This document shows, in pieces, positions 6,309-54,716 of a stretch of 64,000 nucleotides of DNA; within the stretch, counting starts at the first letter, position 1; each line of letters begins with the position of its first letter. Below the pieces are notes generated by a model, which worked only from the letters and a program-made list of their open reading frames with translations, did no database searches and was not told the DNA's origin. The position numbers were made by a program, and so were the translations under genes. Source of the stretch: Acidobacteriota bacterium (GTDB taxonomy: Bacteria > Acidobacteriota > Polarisedimenticolia > Gp22-AA2); contig QHXX01000032.1 of the NCBI GenBank assembly GCA_003223135.1, positions 21,031 to 85,030 of the forward strand, given 5' to 3'.

Positions 6309-7094
6309 ATGCAGAGTCGCCGCCGGAAGCTGGTGAAGGATCTCAAGGAGCGAGGCGAGCTCCGGGGCTCGAGCACCGCCGGGGCGCTCACCGACCTTCT
6401 GTACGACGAGCTCACCGACCTGCCGACCGTGCCGCTGCTCCTCGGCCGGATCCGTCGCCTGTTGAAGGAATCGCGCCAGCTGGGACTCCTGTCCATCAGC
6501 GTCCTGCAGAATGAGCGCGGAGAGCAGACCCTGGGATGGCAGGGGTACGAGTTTCTGGTGCGCAGCGTCGCCTCCTTCCTGGTCGAGATCAAGAAGGTCG
6601 CGCTCCGGCAGGACGACTACGTCTCCGAGGTGATGATCAGCGGCAACGCCTTCGTGATCCTGCTGTCACCACCGCGCGGCAAACAGGAGATCGCCTACAC
6701 CGACCTCGACAAGGTGCGGCGGCGCGTCGCCGCCAGGCTGGAGCGCTTCGTCCGGGATCGCCTGGCGGCCGAGGTGCAGGAAACGTTCGGTCTGTACGTC
6801 GGCTGCGCCGTGCTGATTCACAATTCCTCGGTGCGCTTCGAGCGTCTGGTCTACTCCGCTCTGGAGCAGGCCTTCACCGACTCGCTGCAGCAGCGCAAAA
6901 GGGAACAGCGCGACGCCGCGCTCAAGCTGAGGATGATCTTGAAGGCGGAGGCAGTCCAGCCCGTCTACCAGCCGGTCATTGATCTGCTGGAGCGGCGGGT
7001 GGTCGGATTCGAGGCCCTGACCCGCGTGTCGCCCGACGCCTTCGCCGGCCCCGACCAGCTGTTCAAGGCCGCCTACGACAACGACTCGGTCTGA
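6309..7094 (+). CDS. degenerate GGDEF-like domain plus N-terminal part of EAL domain (gene interrupted at 7092)
   Basis: LTDLPT...ISGNAFVILL aligns to GGDEF with the motif replaced by SGNAF. The C-terminus QPVYQPVIDL...GFEALTR...LFKAAYDNDSV is the start of an EAL domain, followed by a stop. Confidence 0.6.
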   Translation: MQSRRRKLVKDLKERGELRGSSTAGALTDLLYDELTDLPTVPLLLGRIRRLLKESRQLGLLSISVLQNERGEQTLGWQGYEFLVRSVASFLVEIKKVALRQDDYVSEVMISGNAFVILLSPPRGKQEIAYTDLDKVRRRVAARLERFVRDRLAAEVQETFGLYVGCAVLIHNSSVRFERLVYSALEQAFTDSLQQRKREQRDAALKLRMILKAEAVQPVYQPVIDLLERRVVGFEALTRVSPDAFAGPDQLFKAAYDNDSV

Positions 7095-7105
7095 TCGTCC
7101 TGGAA

Positions 7106-7492
7106 ATGACCGAGCACTCCGCGGTGCGCGACTTCACGTCACTGCGGCAGCTCCTCAGCTATCTCCAATTCCACGGGTTCCGGCTGGCGGTGGACGACGT
7201 TGGCTCGGGGTACTCGGGCCTGAAGTCCATCGCCGAGATCAAGCCGGACTTCATCAAGATCGACATGGCGCTCATCCGCGACATCCATCTTCATCCGATC
7301 AAGCAGGACCTGACCGGAACCATCGCCCGCTTCTCGACCAGCTCCGGCATCACTCTCATCGCCGAGGGGGTGGAGGGGTCCGAGGAACTGCGCTGCCTGC
7401 AGGCGATCGGCGTGCGCTACGCTCAGGGTTTCCTGTTTGCGCGCCCCGGGCCACCCTTCCCGCAGGCCGATCTCAGCGCCATCGAGGAGTAG
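7106..7492 (+). CDS. C-terminal part of EAL phosphodiesterase domain (continues the preceding gene in another frame)
   Basis: GLIVLEMTEH...LAVDDVGSGYSGL...IKIDMALIRDI...LIAEGVE...QGFLF are EAL motifs. The frame is open upstream across the stop of the previous ORF. Confidence 0.55.
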   Translation: MTEHSAVRDFTSLRQLLSYLQFHGFRLAVDDVGSGYSGLKSIAEIKPDFIKIDMALIRDIHLHPIKQDLTGTIARFSTSSGITLIAEGVEGSEELRCLQAIGVRYAQGFLFARPGPPFPQADLSAIEE

Positions 7493-7545
7493 GACGACCT
7501 TCCGTGCCCGTCCGTGATGAGACGGTGTTCACCTCGTGGCGCCCG

Positions 7546-7584
7546 AAGAATAGAGAAAGCCGCTTCATGAGACCGAAGCGGCTT
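7546..7584 (-). terminator. putative rho-independent terminator for the small minus-strand gene (also downstream of the EAL gene)
   Basis: Perfect 10-bp stem AAGCCGCTTC/GAAGCGGCTT with an 8-nt loop. On the minus strand it is followed by the U-rich ttctctattctt. Confidence 0.45.
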
Positions 7585-7659
7585 GGAACGATCGTGAGCT
7601 GCGGAGCGTTCGGTGCGAATCTCAGCCCTCATGGACTGGTCGGAGAAAGGCGACGTGCT

Positions 7660-7872
7660 CTAGACCGCCCGCTTCTCCTGGGCCTGCGACTGATTCCATG
7701 CGCCCATGATCAGGCACGTCTTGGCGGTCTCGACCTCGATCCAGCGCTGATACACCTTTCGGCGGGTCGGGTCAATCTGGTATGAAACGTTCGCATAGCT
7801 GAAATCGACCATCCCGTTCGACGGCCTGGACGAACGCTTCTTGCTGGCGACGGCGGCTTTTTTCTTCCTCAT
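7660..7872 (-). CDS. small basic hypothetical protein (70 aa) expressed from a sigma54 promoter
   Basis: ATG at 7872 is preceded by GGGAGGA. The protein is MRKKKAAVASKKRSSRPSNGMVDFSYANVSYQIDPTRRKVYQRWIEVETAKTCLIMGAWNQSQAQEKRAV. I recognise no family. Confidence 0.5.
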   Translation of the reverse strand: MRKKKAAVASKKRSSRPSNGMVDFSYANVSYQIDPTRRKVYQRWIEVETAKTCLIMGAWNQSQAQEKRAV

Positions 7873-7906
7873 CCCGAACGTCCTCCCGAAGGTTGTCACT
7901 CCAGTG

Positions 7907-7922
7907 AGCAATTTCCTTGCCA
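7907..7922 (-). promoter_or_regulatory. sigma54 (RpoN) -24/-12 promoter TGGCAAG-N4-TTGCT
   Basis: Minus-strand sequence tggcaaggaaattgct ends 35 nt upstream of the ATG at 7872. It matches the consensus TGGCACG-N4-TTGCW at 11 of 12 core positions, with GG and GC correctly spaced. Confidence 0.55.
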
Positions 7923-8058
7923 GAATTTCGTCGTCCGCAGCGCGATTTCACAATGCACAAGGGGGTCGTAACTAATTGAAAGAACAGCAGCTTGGGTAGG
8001 CAACGATCGATGCCGCATCGTGTTGCCTCTCCGCTCAACAGCGAAATCGGTTTTGATC

Positions 8059-8107
8059 TGTCACTCTGGCGTGCTTCTACATTGACAGAAATACGTCAAA
8101 GTGACAG
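8059..8107. promoter_or_regulatory. cluster of TGTCA/TGACA dyads (candidate enhancer/UAS for the adjacent sigma54 activator)
   Basis: The sequence is tgtcactctggcgtgcttctacattgacagaaatacgtcaaagtgacaga. It contains the palindrome TTGAC-N8-GTCAA and inverted TGTCAC...GTGACA. It lies about 140-200 bp upstream of the sigma54 promoter on the same strand sense, and a related tgtcactcc motif occurs at about 7882. Confidence 0.35.
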
Positions 8108-8134
8108 ACTTCGGAGGCTCATCGAGAGGTGACG

Positions 8135-9544
8135 ATGCCCGTTCAAGGCAAGCAGATCCTGCTCATCGATCCGGCCCAGCGTTTCGAGGTGGAGCTCATG
8201 CTCCGTGGTTTGGGCATGGACGTACGCTCCGTCGCGAGCCCGGCGGCGGCCCTCGACCTTGCGTCCCGCGACGACTTCGATATGGCCCTCCTCGACGTTG
8301 CGCTGGTCGGAGACGGCGACGACGATGTCGTGGCCAGGCTTCGCGCACAAACGACCATCCCCTCCATTCTGGTGCTGACAACCGAGGACGCGGTCCGCCG
8401 GGCCGTGCGTGCCCTCGAGCATGGGGCCGACGACTACCTGGTCCGGCCGCTGGAACGCGCCGAAGTCCGGGCCCGGCTGGCGCGCATCCTGGAGTGGCAG
8501 CACGCCGGTGACCGCGCCGTCCACCTCCAGAACGAGTTAAGCCGAAAATACCTGGTCGGCAACCTGGTCAGCCGTTCCGAGGGCATGCGGCGCGTGAGGG
8601 ACCAGATTCTCCAGGTCGCCGCGGCGCGCAGCACGGTGCTGATTCTGGGGGAGAGCGGCGTGGGGAAAGAGCTGGTGGCCAAGGCGATCCACTTCAACTC
8701 ACCCAGGCGCGAGGCGCCGTTCATCGCGATCAACTGCTCCGCCATACCCGTCAACCTGATCGAAAGCGAGCTGTTCGGTCACGAAAGGGGCGCTTTCACC
8801 GGTGCCTTCGGACGACAGAAGGGGAAGTTCGAGCTGGCCGACGGGGGGACCGTCTTCCTCGACGAGGTCGGCGACATGGACCTTCTGACCCAGGCGAAGC
8901 TGCTGCGCGTGCTGGAGGAGAGGGAATTCATGCGGGTTGGAGGCAGCCGCGAAGTGCGCGTGGACGTGCGGGTGCTGGCGGCGACCAACACCGACCTGGA
9001 CGATCTGATCCGCAAGAGCCGCTTCCGCGAAGATCTCTATTTCCGCCTCAAAGTGATTACCGTCCGCGTGCCGCCGCTGCGCGAACGGCAGGAGGATATT
9101 CCCGAGCTGGCGCGGGTGATCCTCGAGCAGATCCGGCGCGACAACGGGCTGAGGCCGCGTCGCCTGACCGCGCCGGCCGTGCGCCGTCTGCAGCGCTACC
9201 CGTGGCCCGGCAACGTGCGTGAGCTCAAGAACGTGCTGGAGAGCACCGCGATCACGCGCCCGGGCGACGTGATCCGCGAGAGCGATCTGCCGGCGGGCGT
9301 CCGCGGAGAGGACGGCCCGGGAGCGCCACGCGCCCACCCGCGCTTCGGGATTTCTCTCCGGGAGATGGAACGTGACCTGATCCGGCGGACGCTCCTGCGC
9401 CACGACGGCAACCGCACGCACGCCTCCCGGACCCTGCGCATCGGCGTGAGAACGCTGCAGCGCAAGATCCGCGCCTACGGCATTCGCGTGCCCGGTCCCC
9501 GCGGTCGGCGGGCCGGGCAGACTGCGGGCGTCATCAAAGGTTGA
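8135..9544 (+). CDS. sigma54-dependent Fis-family response regulator (NtrC-like: receiver + AAA+ + HTH)
   Basis: ATG at 8135 follows GAGAGG. Receiver domain (MALLDVAL), Walker A GESGVGKE, GAFTGA motif, R-finger region and a C-terminal Fis-type HTH. Confidence 0.85.
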   Translation: MPVQGKQILLIDPAQRFEVELMLRGLGMDVRSVASPAAALDLASRDDFDMALLDVALVGDGDDDVVARLRAQTTIPSILVLTTEDAVRRAVRALEHGADDYLVRPLERAEVRARLARILEWQHAGDRAVHLQNELSRKYLVGNLVSRSEGMRRVRDQILQVAAARSTVLILGESGVGKELVAKAIHFNSPRREAPFIAINCSAIPVNLIESELFGHERGAFTGAFGRQKGKFELADGGTVFLDEVGDMDLLTQAKLLRVLEEREFMRVGGSREVRVDVRVLAATNTDLDDLIRKSRFREDLYFRLKVITVRVPPLRERQEDIPELARVILEQIRRDNGLRPRRLTAPAVRRLQRYPWPGNVRELKNVLESTAITRPGDVIRESDLPAGVRGEDGPGAPRAHPRFGISLREMERDLIRRTLLRHDGNRTHASRTLRIGVRTLQRKIRAYGIRVPGPRGRRAGQTAGVIKG

Positions 9545-41914: not shown

Positions 41915-43437
<1,523 letters not shown>

Positions 43438-43725
43438 TCAGCTGATCACTCCGAGCACTTCGTCCTCGCGCACGATGACGTGCTCAACCTCATCGATCTT
43501 GATCTCGGTGCCGGCGTACTTGCCGACCAGCACGCGATCACCGACCTTCACCTCGAGTGGAATCCTCTTGCCGTCGTCATCGAGGCGACCGGTTCCCACT
43601 GCAACCACCTTGCCCTCGAGCGGCTTTTCCTTGGCCGTGTCCGGGATGATGATTCCGCCCTTGACCTTCTCCTCGGGATCCACCCTCTTCACCAGGACCC
43701 GGTCGTGCAGAGGCTTTACCTTCAT
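43438..43725 (-). CDS. groES: co-chaperonin GroES
   Basis: [15 protein letters not shown]...; preceded by AGGAGGG. Confidence 0.9.
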
Positions 43726-43800
43726 CTTGTGTTCCCTCCTGATCGGATTTTGGAGCCTTCTCAAGCGGTTGATAGAGCTTCTCTAACAAGCTTGCCGTCG

Positions 43801-51683: not shown

Positions 51684-52415
51684 TCAGGTCGCGGACGAAA
51701 GACGGACGACGATTCCGAGCGTCAGAAGGGCCCAGAGGAGCCGGCAGATCTCGAAATCCTTCAGCGTCGAACCGCGGCACAGATCACGCAAAGTGGTAGG
51801 CCGCTCGCAATGCGACAGGAGCGTCCACTCCTCCAGCGAGAGGGTGAGGTCGCGGCTCATGTCCTCGAGACCCGGTGCCGTCTGGTAACGCATCTCCAGG
51901 TCGCCGACCGCCTCCCAGATTCTCTCCCAACTTTCGATCCTCCGGATCCCTTCGAGGATGGTGTTCCCCGCGCTCAGCTTCAGCGTGATGACTTCGTCGG
52001 TGGGCAGATCGCCGGGGCGGTAGCGATACCGCCCGCGCGTCCACAGAAACAGGCTGCAGACGATGTTCCGGACTTGGCAGCGCACCCCCTCCACGAGGTC
52101 ATGCGCCTCGATCAGCTCCATCTCCACGAGGACCGTGCCGAGCCGCTTGCCCTCTTCCGCGGCGCGCTCGAGGGCGCCCATGAGTCCTTCCAGGCTCACG
52201 AGCCCGGCCTTGAAGAAGATCTGCCCGACGCGATCGTCGCGATCGTTGGAGGTGGCAAACACCGGCCGTCCCGACTGGATGTAGATCGACTTCTCGATCG
52301 TGTCCCCGGTCAGGGTCAGCACGCCGGTCTCTTTCCTGCGCAGGACGGAATACACCAGACCCGGAAACGTCGTGGTGGAGAGAATTCCTTCGCGCGGCTG
52401 GCTGTCCTTCGGCAT
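51684..52415 (-). CDS. DUF4388 domain-containing protein
   Basis: Start MPKDSQPREGIL is preceded by GAGAGAG. The FPGLVYSVLRRKETGVLTL N-terminus is typical of DUF4388. Confidence 0.55.
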   Translation of the reverse strand: MPKDSQPREGILSTTTFPGLVYSVLRRKETGVLTLTGDTIEKSIYIQSGRPVFATSNDRDDRVGQIFFKAGLVSLEGLMGALERAAEEGKRLGTVLVEMELIEAHDLVEGVRCQVRNIVCSLFLWTRGRYRYRPGDLPTDEVITLKLSAGNTILEGIRRIESWERIWEAVGDLEMRYQTAPGLEDMSRDLTLSLEEWTLLSHCERPTTLRDLCRGSTLKDFEICRLLWALLTLGIVVRLSSAT

Positions 52416-52720
52416 CTCTCTCGATCGACCCCCGGTACAGTAGGGACAGGATCGCCATTTGTCAATGAGACGATGACTGTCTTCGCAAGCGAAATAAATT
52501 CGACTATCCCTCGTCCCTGGAGTAAGATAGGGGTCGCTGCAAACGCTCAGCAGGCCGATTACAAATGTTTCTTGACGAATCTTTTGCATGACGGCACACT
52601 TGCACTAGTCGGCGCTTCCCCGTACCTTCACAGGCCTCACGAAGCGTCGATGCAGTAGTGAGCGGCAGGCTGGACGTCAGGTCCGCGACCACAGGGCACC
52701 GGTGCCAGGGGAACGGCAAG

Positions 52721-53899
52721 ATGGAACAGGAGCTGCGGGGAAGTACCCGGCTGGGCAATTACCTCCGCAGGCTCAGAATCGGATACGGTCTCTCGTTGCG
52801 CAGGGTCGAGGACAAGGCCAAGACCGGCGGCGGCGAGATCGACAATTCCCAGTTGTCCCGTTATGAGCGCGGCAAGTGTTACCCGTCCTTCGACAAGCTG
52901 TGCCTCCTGGCCAACATTTTCAACGTCCCCATCCAGAACTTCTCGGACGTGCTCGATCTCGAGAGGGTCGATCCGTTCGAGCCGGCCCCGTCGGCCGCCT
53001 ACGAAGACCTGAAGGCGGAGGCCAACCGGGAGTGGGACCAGGGAAACTACGCACGGGCCTACGCCATCTACGAAACGGCCCTGGCGCGCCTCGAGGACGG
53101 CGTCGAGGGACAGGTGGACGCGGAGATCCTGGCCAGGGCGCGCTTCAACCTGGCCCGCACGCTCCTGCGCATGGGGAAGATCAGCCTCGCGGAGACCGAG
53201 CTGCGGCTGATTCTGCGGCGCCACAAGGACATCTCGCCGACGACCGAGGGCGCCGTCCTGGGGTGCCTGGCCGACGCCCACGAAGACAAGGGCGACCGGT
53301 ACCTGGCGCTCCTCGAGTCGGAAAAGGCCCTCGCCATCGCCCGTCGATCTGTCAACGTCGAATATGAAGGCTACGCCCTGCATCGCATCGGACGACTGCA
53401 CTTCCTCGATGCCAATTACGACATGGCCCTCGAGAGCTTCCGCGAAGCGCGTGTACTTCTGGAGGGGAAGGCCGGCCGCTACGATCTGACGCTCCTCCGG
53501 ATCAACATCGGCTTCTGCCAGGCCATGCTGGGCCGCCTGGACCGGGGCATCCGCGAGCTGAAGGAAGCGCTCCAGGTCGCTGGCAAGGAAGGCTTCCGCC
53601 GGTGCTCAACGTACGCGCTCCTGTACCTCGGGCAGGTCCACATGCTCAAAGAAGAGCACGTCCGGGCGCGCGATTACTTTGAGGAAGCGGAGCTTCTGGC
53701 GCACGGCGGCGAAGAGAGATTCGTCGACATCCTGTTCCAGACGGCCTACCACCTCTGGGAAATGGCCCGGATGTCCAGGAACCAGGTGCAGGAGAAAGTG
53801 TACTTTGGCCGCTTGAAGTTCCTGCGCTCCCAGCTCGACCGTCAGTTCCAGGAGGTCGAGAAGTTCGACCAGTACATCGAACAAGGAAAGGGTCGGTGA
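52721..53899 (+). CDS. XRE-family helix-turn-helix transcriptional regulator with TPR repeats
   Basis: LGNYLRRLRIGYGLSLRRVEDKA...SQLSRYERGK HTH, followed by about 300 aa of TPR-like helical repeats. Confidence 0.65.
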   Translation: MEQELRGSTRLGNYLRRLRIGYGLSLRRVEDKAKTGGGEIDNSQLSRYERGKCYPSFDKLCLLANIFNVPIQNFSDVLDLERVDPFEPAPSAAYEDLKAEANREWDQGNYARAYAIYETALARLEDGVEGQVDAEILARARFNLARTLLRMGKISLAETELRLILRRHKDISPTTEGAVLGCLADAHEDKGDRYLALLESEKALAIARRSVNVEYEGYALHRIGRLHFLDANYDMALESFREARVLLEGKAGRYDLTLLRINIGFCQAMLGRLDRGIRELKEALQVAGKEGFRRCSTYALLYLGQVHMLKEEHVRARDYFEEAELLAHGGEERFVDILFQTAYHLWEMARMSRNQVQEKVYFGRLKFLRSQLDRQFQEVEKFDQYIEQGKGR

Positions 53900-53903
53900 T
53901 CCC

Positions 53904-54668
53904 GTGAACAGGCTGCGCGGCACTCGGTCCTGGGCAACGGTCGCGGCGCTTCTGCTCTTCCCCTCCATGGTGCTGGCCGAGGTCAGCGTGCAGGTCGACA
54001 GCCTCGGCAACTACAAGCGCTTTGTGTACCTGACGGTCGGCAAGGGACGCACTGCCGTTGTCTGGCGCCAGATGCGGGCGCGCCTGCCACAGAACCTGGT
54101 GTTGAATCCCCTCGGGGACAACCTCGGCGACCGGCCGCCCGTCATCCAGGTCTCCCCGGTGACCGGCTATCCCTGGGTCGTGTGGCCTAAGAATTTCGGC
54201 AACATCAAGCTGCTCGTTTCAGCGACCTGGGAAGGTACGGGCAAGAAATGGACCGAGCCGTCCCTGATAGCACCGGGCGCCCCGCTGGTCTACGATGACC
54301 TGGATCCTTCCCTTGCGATCGACGGGTCCGGCACGCTCTACCTCGTCTGGTCGCGGGCGGAACAGACGGCGAAGGTGTACTTCAGCACGATGATCCAGGG
54401 TCGATGGACTCCGGCGCTGCTGATCAGTGAGGCGACCGTCGACGGTCGAGCGCCTTCGATTGTGCTGAGCGGCAAGACGGCGATCATCAGCTACCAGACG
54501 CCGGCCGGCCCCGTGACGAGGAATTACCAGGCCGCGTCCCTGGTGCAGAGCGCTGCCAGCCTGATGGACAACCCGATCCCTCCGCTCTTCGGTCCCCCTC
54601 CGGGTGGAGACAATCCCTCAGGTGGCGGCGGCGGCGGCGGAGGCCACGCGGGGATTTACAGGGAGTAG
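53904..54668 (+). CDS. secreted hypothetical protein with C-terminal Pro/Gly-rich poly-glycine tail
   Basis: GTG start 4 nt after the regulator stop. Signal peptide MNRLRGTRSWATVAALLLFPSMVLA. Beta-rich, with tail ...PIPPLFGPPPGGDNPSGGGGGGGGHAGIYRE. Confidence 0.5.
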   Translation: MNRLRGTRSWATVAALLLFPSMVLAEVSVQVDSLGNYKRFVYLTVGKGRTAVVWRQMRARLPQNLVLNPLGDNLGDRPPVIQVSPVTGYPWVVWPKNFGNIKLLVSATWEGTGKKWTEPSLIAPGAPLVYDDLDPSLAIDGSGTLYLVWSRAEQTAKVYFSTMIQGRWTPALLISEATVDGRAPSIVLSGKTAIISYQTPAGPVTRNYQAASLVQSAASLMDNPIPPLFGPPPGGDNPSGGGGGGGGHAGIYRE

Positions 54669-54686
54669 GAACCGACCTCGACGACT

Positions 54687-54716
54687 AAAAAACCCGGCTG
54701 CAAGGCCGGGTTTTTT
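54687..54716. terminator. bidirectional rho-independent terminator
   Basis: Sequence aaaaaa-CCCGGC-tgcaag-GCCGGG-tttttt. It lies between the convergent secreted-protein gene and lapA. Confidence 0.8.

Follow-up and report, generated by a model that had tools for sequence, protein, structure and literature searches.

The two co-oriented genes at the centre of the window (the whole 64,000-nucleotide stretch of acidobacterial DNA analyzed here) encode an XRE-family helix-turn-helix (HTH) regulator with a long TPR domain and a small exported protein, and we propose, with modest confidence, that they form an autoregulated, probably self-activating operon of a transcription factor and an envelope protein. 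In this model, a dimer of the regulator most likely binds an inverted repeat placed at a fixed, helical-phase-preserving distance upstream of its own -35-like box, and from there controls, probably activates, its own operon. The TPR superhelix would act as the input module for some binding partner or ligand. The partner, translationally coupled to the regulator gene and predicted to be exported by Sec, would be the envelope-located member of the module, its partial propeller probably oligomerizing or binding a glycan or another envelope component.

Organization of the locus

The locus comprises the following genes and terminator:

52721-53899, plus strand: XRE-HTH/TPR regulator gene (ORF 52658-53899), encoding a cytoplasmic protein of 392 aa
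53904-54668, plus strand: exported-protein gene with a GTG start at 53904, encoding 254 aa
51684-52415, minus strand: PATAN/DUF4388 (PatA_N) gene, encoding 243 aa from ATG 52415 (the ORF reaches 52589)
54687-54716, no strand assigned: bidirectional intrinsic terminator, identified by folding, common to the pair and the convergent lapA-kds operon

The regulator most likely starts at ATG 52721, with GGGGAA 7 nt upstream, and the resulting 392 aa is the length of most of its homologues among those listed. As a preliminary description of this DNA had pointed out, its stop codon (TGA, 53897-53899) is separated by only 4 nt from the GTG of the 254-aa protein. The tight coupling claimed there extends well beyond the window, since every informative locus has the two genes side by side in the same orientation, with a 4-nt gap or an overlap. 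The strong bidirectional terminator reported after the pair is likewise real: it folds into a 13-bp stem with a 4-nt loop (-21.5 kcal/mol, z -2.8), with A6 on one side and T6 on the other, and agrees with the Rho-independent pattern of a GC-rich hairpin followed by a U-run. Extension of the stem by A/T pairs caused a consensus scan to overlook it. Homologues of all three genes are numerous, which rules out a chance pattern of ORFs, and the organisms carrying the operon are uncultured Acidobacteria of soil and sediment.

The pair is conserved in three genomic contexts

Co-conservation of the two genes, the check that the preliminary description had proposed, is decisively positive. The pair is found in three unrelated contexts, namely the LPS-core/Kdo cluster (as in the window), alaS-SLT/pgsA, and upstream of the dcw cluster, all of which adjoin cell-envelope biogenesis genes. 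In clade A, wherever a contig spans the two genes, the regulator lies directly upstream of the partner; synteny in this clade extends over an entire 15-kb block, however, so that clade-A pairing is uninformative on its own. There and in the L004 lineage the position of the pair is constant, with rfaE on one side and lapA-kdsCDA-pyrG-kdsB on the other, and only in these two groups do LPS genes flank it. In clade B, the larger sister clade, its neighbours are recX-alaS-SLT and pgsA-cinA, and the regulator homologue, full-length wherever the contig reaches, ends at or overlaps the partner start in 35/35 metagenome loci that extend far enough upstream. Locus L070 (49% GC) has the pair beside the mraZ-dcw cluster; there the two genes overlap by 4 nt and the regulator is 40% identical over 388 aa. 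Pairing persists down to about 40% identity for the regulator and 30% for the partner.

No relative was found in the phage and plasmid collections IMG/VR and PLSDB. The best reading is that the operon is chromosomal and vertically inherited in Acidobacteriota (class Polarisedimenticolia, 'gp22') and in one unplaced lineage.

The divergent gene does encode a DUF4388/PatA_N protein, as previously described (PF14332, 3.9e-21, 75.8 bits against a cut-off of 25 in Pfam). Three called orthologues are 243 aa long, which places its start at ATG 52415 and not at 52589. The GAGAGAG proposed as its Shine-Dalgarno-like sequence is present, but it abuts the ATG directly, a poor spacing for that function, and is not conserved in other loci. 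The helical insert of the protein carries a putative tandem MshEN-like c-di-GMP-binding motif (24 residues in the MshEN type) in which both half-motifs, RVGQIFFKAGLVSLEGLMGALERA and RLGTVLVEMELIEAHDLVEGVRCQ, are visible, with NF053729 scores of 31.3-35.7 bits in three orthologues, below the NCBIfam cut-off of 38. Neither the L004 lineage nor clade B nor L070 has the gene; it is clade-specific and lies outside the conserved core pair.

The regulator

The HTH-plus-TPR architecture first read from the ORF is confirmed by Pfam matches to HTH_3 (PF01381; 9e-7, 29.3 bits against a cut-off of 23), TPR_12 (3.8e-14) and TPR_2 (1.4e-10), and the HTH_3 score above the family threshold makes the protein a member of the XRE-family HTH regulators. 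The HTH spans about aa 9-82 and is followed by some eight TPR-like helix pairs at aa 94-389, with 16 helices C-terminal to the HTH in the AlphaFold2 model. The HTH is nearly invariant, and few proteins of the locus are as conserved as the regulator, whose identities across loci are 70-90%, vs 70-82% for KdsA and 42-64% for the partner. To judge from these values, its conservation appears housekeeping-like, comparable to that of KdsA and far above that of the partner.

In the PDB, BldD, DdrO and ImmR are matched in sequence through their HTH domains. A fold search places the peptide-binding TPR proteins NprR, Rap, AimR and PlcR among its structural neighbours; the likeness to these RNPP proteins, however, does not exceed that to the unrelated TPR proteins APPBP2, TONSOKU, APC5 and MalT domain III. 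The similarities to ALPK1 and MalT are generic TPR matches.

A candidate operator upstream of the regulator gene

The region upstream of the regulator gene contains the following elements:

52535-52552, no strand assigned: inverted repeat CGCTGCAAACGCTCAGCA, candidate operator of the regulator, its centre exactly 28 bp upstream of a conserved TTGAC box
52572-52600, plus strand: promoter-like elements of the regulator operon, TTGACG (52572-52577), 17 nt, CACACT (52595-52600), proposed from conservation
52437-52465, minus strand: promoter-like elements of the PATAN gene, TTGACA (52465-52460), 17 nt, TACTGT (52442-52437), of putative function
52609-52650, plus strand: candidate 5'-leader hairpin, stem 52609-52617/52642-52650 around the conserved loop TTCCCCGTACCTT

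Across 321 kb of clade-A loci and the window, each locus has a single copy of the repeat, and that copy invariably precedes the regulator gene. Related palindromes precede the regulator gene in clade B, the L004 lineage and L070; for the clade-B form, GCGGAY-N5-RTCCGC, 15/17 matches in 542 kb lie upstream of it. The repeat centre lies 28.0 bp from TTGAC in 17/17 clade-A sequences with a match; in L070 and the majority of clade-B loci the distance is greater by roughly one turn of the helix, at 36.5-38.5 bp. With respect to the inferred transcription start the repeat would fall near -64 or -73, on the upstream side of the -35-like box, a position that looks activator-like rather than repressor-like. 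No further copy was found near other genes in the loci searched, including upstream of LPS operons, and thus no regulon beyond the operon is known.

In this regard, the regulator resembles XRE autoregulators such as SinR, BldD, DdrO and ImmR, which share the HTH_3 domain and a palindrome at their own promoter, binding being putative in the present case. It differs from them in its additional TPR sensor domain of roughly 300 aa, and in a site upstream of the -35-like box that would suit an activator.

Within the candidate promoter, TTTCTTGAC is present in 13/16 clade-A loci, followed by CACCATTGCAG. A strict sigma-70 consensus scan did not detect the regulator-operon promoter, whose hexamers are weak matches. 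For the promoter-like elements of the PATAN gene, an intergenic alignment of 17 loci shows two conserved blocks, TGTCAA and GGTAGGG. The leader hairpin pairs 73.5% of cells, where slid controls reach 39-51%, and covariation is 0.308 against at most 0.18; RNAalifold support is weak, and Rfam gave no match. The alignment revealed no conserved ORF in the 5' leader.

The exported protein and its variable tail

The partner (ORF 53904-54668) had been described as a signal-peptide protein with a poly-glycine C-terminus, and both features are read directly in the sequence as a Sec-type leader and a G8 tail (...GPPPGGDNPSGGGGGGGGHAGIYRE). The leader, called by inspection and alignment, consists of MNRLRGTRSWATVAALLLFPSMVLA, with predicted cleavage before EVSV; its n-region is basic, its core hydrophobic, and its A-x-A site, followed by E, is conserved. 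In 29 homologues neither the A at -1 nor the E at +1 varies, and the n-region differs between clades. The signal peptide (aa 1-25) is followed by an N-terminal hairpin and three BNR/sialidase-like blades (aa 26-209), a helix (aa 210-221), the motif LMDNPIPP (aa 220-227; 54561-54584) and a disordered Pro/Gly-rich tail (aa 228-254).

The structural model, with a pLDDT of about 90 up to residue 220, indicates a folded three-blade BNR/sialidase-like partial propeller half the size of an enzyme. Its three blades and hairpin, about 185 aa, fall short of a closed five- or six-bladed propeller, and the protein cannot close as a propeller alone. The degenerate blade motifs (SATWEGTGKKWTEP, STMIQGRWTPA; general form S-x-x-x-G-x-W-T-x-P) liken it to BNR/Asp-box sialidase-type propellers (sialidases, GH43, BNR_4), from which it departs in blade number and in its C-terminal additions, a conserved linear motif and a disordered tail. 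The sequence shows neither canonical Asp-boxes (S-x-D-x-G-x-T-W) nor the RIP/Arg-triad signature of catalysis. No BNR match was obtained in Pfam, the GH43 match being weak (19.8 bits, cut-off 32.2), and no Pfam family scored above cut-off in the four members of the partner family scanned; the partner profile also matches long BNR_4-type multi-repeat proteins. The fold corresponds in spirit to the second refuting condition of the preliminary description, a typical enzyme such as a sialidase/BNR-like protein, although the partner has only half the size of one.

The motif preceding the tail is either LMDNPIPP or ITDDINP, nearly invariant within each clade (motif-spanning peptides SAASLMDNPIPPLF and TITDDINP). 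As LMDNPIPP stands at the end of the confidently predicted helix, it may be structural and not a free ligand. The tails themselves vary in length and sequence while the regulators remain 70-100% identical. The glycine run of the window is encoded as follows:

54621-54644, plus strand: (GGN)8 tract, GGT (GGC)5 GGA GGC, encoding G240-G247, length-polymorphic

This run had been singled out as a feature of interest, an emphasis that does not withstand comparison: G7, G8, G9 and G11 all occur within one 90%-identity cluster, and runs of at least six G are found in 2/52 clade-A tails and 0/90 clade-B tails. The poly-glycine run is a slippage-prone, strain-variable spacer in the tail, not a signal. 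In L070 and in many clade-A sequences, the tail finishes with a Gly-rich stretch, an aromatic residue and basic residues, in that order.

Alternative explanations

Tight translational coupling kept across deep divergence is more typical of interacting proteins than of a regulator paired with a simple target gene, which leaves room for a direct regulator-partner relationship outside the autoregulated-operon model. We regard as unlikely that the regulator reads the envelope or export state by binding LMDNPIPP or ITDDINP of its own co-translated partner, whether before export or after processing in the periplasm and re-import. If true, this would represent a new signalling logic, a diderm counterpart of receptor-plus-exported-ligand signalling, and the pair, although outside Bacillota, could be remotely related in function to RNPP systems.

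The first version, rather improbable when taken alone, is that the TPR domain binds the cytoplasmic precursor of the partner through the C-terminal motif or the leader, so that operon expression would report export capacity or envelope state. The conserved coupling or overlap would suit two interacting proteins made in stoichiometric amounts, the motif is likewise conserved, the TPR structural neighbours of the regulator bind extended peptides, and all three contexts adjoin envelope-biogenesis genes. The idea is nevertheless pure inference; the n-region of the leader differs from clade to clade, and the motif may belong to the helix that it ends. In type III secretion, TPR chaperone/activator circuits (IpgC-MxiE, SicA-InvF) couple secretion to transcription, and by analogy transcription control would be linked genetically to a TPR protein and a secreted protein here too. 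In the present pair, however, TPR and DNA-binding domain share one polypeptide, export is predicted to be by Sec, and no secretion apparatus lies nearby.

A role as dedicated regulator of the LPS core (heptose and Kdo pathway, lapA), in which the TPR-like domain would sense ADP-heptose or CMP-Kdo and the sialidase-like partner would act on Kdo-containing LPS, also appears doubtful. It is suggested by the invariable position of the pair in clade A and L004 and by the partner fold, Kdo being an ulosonic acid for which hydrolases have been described (PMC3573668). Against it, the pair remains intact in clade B and L070, where LPS genes are missing from the surrounding 6 kb, the repeat is confined, within the loci, to the operon, the ALPK1 and MalT similarities are generic, and the partner has only three blades, degenerate Asp-boxes and no RIP. 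Next to lapA inside an LPS cluster, a TPR protein gene also recalls LapA/LapB (YciS/YciM), a likeness limited to clade A. Unlike LapB (YciM), the regulator carries an HTH instead of an N-terminal membrane anchor and a C-terminal rubredoxin-type zinc finger; neither a hydrophobic N-terminus nor Cys-x2-Cys pairs at the C-terminus were found in it. Moreover, its gene is convergent to lapA, not downstream, and the association is lost in other clades.

The preliminary description had read the regulator as an RNPP-type quorum receptor. In that case the partner would be processed in the periplasm, and a C-terminal fragment, either the tail or LMDNPIPP/ITDDINP, would be re-imported to switch the regulator via its TPR groove. 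We consider this quite improbable. The RRNPP(A) receptors of Bacillota and phages (PlcR, NprR, Rgg/ComR, PrgX, AimR, Rap) resemble the regulator in fusing an N-terminal XRE-type HTH to a TPR superhelix. Receptor/peptide co-diversification and frequent mobile-element carriage are typical hallmarks of these systems, not formal criteria; here, the opposite of co-diversification is seen, freely varying tails beside highly conserved receptors, and the phage and plasmid collections yielded no relative. At 392 aa the regulator falls within the size defined by receptor criteria 3 and 4, 250-500 aa containing TPRs (PMC10075063). Further likenesses are the adjoining gene 4 nt away with its predicted Sec-exported product, the strict co-conservation, the peptide-binding structural neighbours, a short motif near-invariant in each clade within the lower-confidence C-terminal region, and the Gly-rich, then aromatic and basic tail ends. 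Yet the partner is a folded 254-aa propeller, whereas validated propeptides have 21-50 aa and the detector range is 10-100 aa (PMC10075063), and genes only 4 nt apart leave no space for a small propeptide ORF between them. Also against this reading, the poly-glycine length differs among near-identical strains and sequence similarity to RNPP proteins is confined to the HTH (PlcR, E 0.0019). Finally, the host is a diderm acidobacterium, in which a fragment would need periplasmic production and import.

Adjacency with no functional coupling, as ordinary conserved synteny in a narrow clade, would suit the syntenic 15-kb block but is effectively refuted by the clade-B and L070 pairing outside the LPS context, the pair alone surviving three context changes with stop and start always adjacent or overlapping.

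Significance

Currently annotated only as 'helix-turn-helix domain-containing protein' and 'hypothetical protein', the pair constitutes an uncharacterized two-gene module whose partners never change, conserved to roughly the degree of core enzymes, in a class of Acidobacteriota that is widespread and uncultured. The exported protein represents a new small family of three-blade BNR-like proteins of about 240 aa. The operon supplies testable parts, namely a candidate operator with helical-phase-conserved spacing and a conserved linear motif in the exported protein. If the regulator senses its exported partner, receptor-plus-exported-ligand logic would extend to diderm bacteria; otherwise, the module would provide a clean example of an activator/effector operon.

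Gene organization of the locus

The three genes and the terminator reported in the preliminary description are all present in the window, and the 4-nt gap between the stop codon of the regulator (TGA, 53897-53899) and the GTG at 53904, where the 254-aa ORF of its partner begins, is confirmed in the sequence.

52658-53899, + strand: ORF of the XRE-HTH/TPR regulator, from an ORF scan
54687-54716, both strands: bidirectional terminator, a 13-bp hairpin with A6 and T6 flanks (-21.5 kcal/mol), common to the pair and the convergent lapA gene (Pfam LapA_dom, 2.2e-13)

The regulator almost certainly starts at ATG 52721, with GGGGAA 7 nt upstream, giving a protein of 392 aa, which is the length of most of the regulator homologues listed. 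In Pfam it matches an XRE-type HTH (HTH_3, 29.3 bits against a cut-off of 23) as well as several TPR families (e.g. TPR_12, 3.8e-14). The partner carries a typical predicted Sec leader, whose A|E junction is invariant across 29 homologues, and ends in ...GPPPGGDNPSGGGGGGGGHAGIYRE. Several public gene calls start instead at an internal ATG (53964-53966, Met21; MVLAEVSV, 233 aa), a start that would strip the signal peptide; since Met21 is not conserved in the homologues, we favour the GTG/ATG start, which retains the leader.

The divergent gene (51684-52415, minus strand) encodes a PATAN/DUF4388 protein (Pfam, 3.9e-21), and its start is placed at ATG 52415 because three called orthologues are 243 aa long. 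The GAGAGAG proposed as its Shine-Dalgarno-like sequence does exist, but it abuts this ATG and lacks conservation. Residues about 62-111 of the PATAN protein hold two consecutive MshEN-like c-di-GMP motifs, RVGQIFFKAGLVSLEGLMGALERA and RLGTVLVEMELIEAHDLVEGVRCQ; three orthologues score 31-36 bits against NCBIfam NF053729, just under the cut-off of 38, and there are weak matches to the MshEN region of NfrB. The protein may be a c-di-GMP receptor. In the literature search, no publication turned up that ties PATAN to MshEN motifs like this.

In the window the pair is embedded within an LPS inner-core cluster, ordered by ORFs and Pfam as follows.

Minus strand: two heptosyltransferases, left of Trm112/RfaE
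+ strand: Trm112, then an RfaE-type kinase, after the heptosyltransferases
Minus strand: PATAN, between the RfaE-type kinase and the pair
Minus strand: lapA, kdsC, kdsD, kdsA, pyrG and kdsB, after the pair

Elsewhere in the window, groEL (41915-43377, - strand) is disrupted, with residues 1 to about 318 in one frame (ending ...EDLGIKLKK) and the C-terminal part, through to MGGGDMY, in another; it appears short of about 50 codons relative to E. coli GroEL. The neighbouring groES (43438-43764) is intact, and the disruption is either an assembly artefact or a pseudogene.

Conservation of the pair

Exact and near-exact copies of both proteins occur in soil MAGs ('Acidobacteria bacterium 13_1_40CM_2_68_10' and similar names), and homologues further removed carry the labels Candidatus Polarisedimenticolia or 'gp22', an uncultured class. 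In clade A, represented by 17 genome loci and additional metagenome loci, the gene order is identical wherever the contig reaches; since the entire 15-kb block is syntenic there, pairing within this clade says little on its own. The more distant loci L004 and L005 have lost PATAN and keep the pair at the same place, with genes overlapping by 26 nt (regulator 53% and partner 38% identical).

A profile search of 1.8 billion representative proteins placed the 254-aa protein in a wider family of exported proteins of about 230-260 aa, from which 47 metagenome loci (clade B) were fetched. In 35/35 loci whose upstream sequence is long enough, the partner is preceded by a regulator homologue (about 40% identical; full-length where the contig extends far enough) that has the same orientation and ends at or overlaps the partner start. 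No LPS gene lies within 6 kb of the pair in these loci; recX-alaS-SLT transglycosylase borders the pair, an AraC-type gene is present in some cases, and pgsA-cinA lies downstream. The taxonomic label is Polarisedimenticolaceae for one member and 'Acidobacteriota' for the AlaS of one neighbourhood. In L070 (positions 6832-8729), a contig of 49% GC with no phylum assigned, the pair overlaps by 4 nt, the regulator is 40% identical over 388 residues, and mraZ-rsmH-ftsL-ftsI-murE-murF-mraY (the dcw cluster) follows directly. The coupling proposed from the window alone is found in every informative locus, and its persistence across at least three neighbourhood changes defines an autonomous two-gene module. 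That all three neighbourhoods concern the cell envelope is suggestive but anecdotal.

The regulator

Regulator identity across clade A (70-90%) resembles that of KdsA (70-82%), next to 83-95% for PyrG and only 42-64% for the partner, and is unusually high. Almost no variation is seen in the HTH (residues 21-75) or in the last two helices. A confident AlphaFold2 model (pLDDT 92.5) is all-helical, with a five-helix HTH domain followed by 16 helices forming about eight TPR-like pairs.

Table. Structural comparison values for the regulator model
APPBP2: 26.4
TONSOKU: 24.9
APC5: 23.0
NprR: 22.5
phage Rap: 22.4
MalT domain III: 22.3
AimR: 18.9
PlcR: 18.6

By these values RNPP receptors are among the nearest bacterial structures, yet no closer than unrelated TPR proteins; for PlcR, the sequence match is confined to the HTH (E 0.0019).

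The exported protein

In the AlphaFold2 model of the partner (pLDDT 79.5), the leader helix and a beta-hairpin at the N-terminus precede about three blades of four strands each (residues 80-209), a helix (210-221) and a disordered end (234-254, pLDDT below 50). The blades bear degenerate Asp-box-like motifs (STWDGxxWTxP, STxxxGxWTPP), a RIP motif is absent from the sequence, and all Pfam families stay below threshold. The protein is predicted to be BNR/sialidase-like in fold but is not a typical enzyme. Because three blades cannot close a propeller, oligomerisation is plausible; the designed three-blade 'Pizza3' is among the fold-search matches. Many larger proteins (380-2480 aa; P0181, P0185 and P0187 among them), some of them bearing BNR_4 or PD40 signatures, contain 4-18 copies of the blade region (profile positions about 78-205), and the 254-aa protein looks like a stand-alone copy of this widespread repeat unit.

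Family-wide invariants are the mature N-terminus (A|EV), LNPxGDxxGD, PWVVW and a C-terminal motif. The conserved element at the C-terminus is this motif just before the tail, not the tail: LMDNPIPP in 37/52 clade-A proteins, the remainder being one substitution off, and ITDDINP in 73/90 clade-B proteins. Tail sequences themselves are unconstrained.

Table. Tails of the exported proteins
Length: clade A, 19-32 residues; clade B, 11-25 residues
Gly content: clade A, 26%; clade B, 9%
Pro content: clade A, 20%; clade B, 8%
G runs of at least 4: clade A, 19/52; clade B, none
G runs of at least 6: clade A, 2/52; clade B, none
At least 2 K/R among the last four residues: clade A, 30/52; clade B, 18/90

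Many clade-A tails end in a hydrophobic residue followed by basic residues (GFVKKK, GFIKRR, HVFRK), and the L070 protein ends similarly (GGGFHGNKEK). The G8 run in the window is encoded by GGT (GGC)5 GGA GGC (54621-54644, + strand), and proteins from different samples that share at least 90% identity have runs of G7, G8, G9 or G11, a polymorphism that bears the signature of in-frame replication slippage in a tolerant spacer.

Candidate operator and promoter

Alignment of the intergenic regions reveals a conserved block with an inverted repeat in every clade.

Clade A (window 52535-52552): TGCTGCA-N6-CMGCR, in the window CGCTGCAAACGCTCAGCA
L004/L005: TGCTGTATCTGAGCAGCA
Clade B: GCGGAY-N5-RTCCGC
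L070: TTGCTGCATCTATGCAGCAA

In 321 kb, each locus has a single copy of the clade-A pattern (L003 alone has a second), and every copy lies upstream of the regulator gene; the clade-B pattern has 17 matches in 542 kb, 15 of them just upstream of that gene, at 98-174 nt from the start codon in the 13 whose start is mapped. The repeat is followed by a conserved TTGAC(A/G) box, exactly 28.0 bp from the palindrome centre in all 17 clade-A sequences with a match and 36.5-38.5 bp from it in most clade-B loci and L070, a difference of about one helical turn. Taking TTGAC as the -35 element would place the palindrome centres near -64 and -73. Such positions are typical of class I activators (CRP-type activation), and we infer from them that a dimer of the regulator binds the candidate site and activates the operon in which it is encoded.

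A conserved loop, TTCCCCGTACCTT, sits in the 5' leader of the regulator mRNA (52609-52650, + strand), closed by a stem between 52609-52617 and 52642-52650. Under this structure 73.5% of cells pair, versus 39-51% in the slid controls, and some of the changes are compensatory (CGGCGC/GCGCCG versus CGACGC/GCGTCG); RNAalifold support is weak and Rfam gave no match. The leader UUCCCC is complementary to the GGGGAA Shine-Dalgarno sequence (52708-52713) and could pair with it.

Discussion

Our results confirm the arrangement first observed and partly support its interpretation. In the best-supported model, an XRE-TPR transcription factor regulates its own expression and is co-expressed with a BNR-like protein located in the envelope. 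Given that translational coupling persists and that the linear motif before the tail is invariant, the regulator may sense its own partner, whether before export or after processing; we give these two models, taken together, a low but real probability. It is unlikely that the pair serves the neighbouring LPS genes alone, as it is independent of such genes elsewhere and the repeat is absent from LPS gene promoters. The proposed identity as an RNPP-type quorum regulator, in its canonical form, is argued against on three counts: the partner, at 254 aa, fails the small-propeptide criterion for these systems (PMC10075063), receptor and 'peptide' show no co-diversification, and no relative was found in phage or plasmid collections (IMG/VR, PLSDB). 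Chance adjacency of the two genes is ruled out by the data.

The pair is best described as an XRE-TPR regulator with an obligate exported partner, in which the TPR domain of the autoregulated factor would receive the input.
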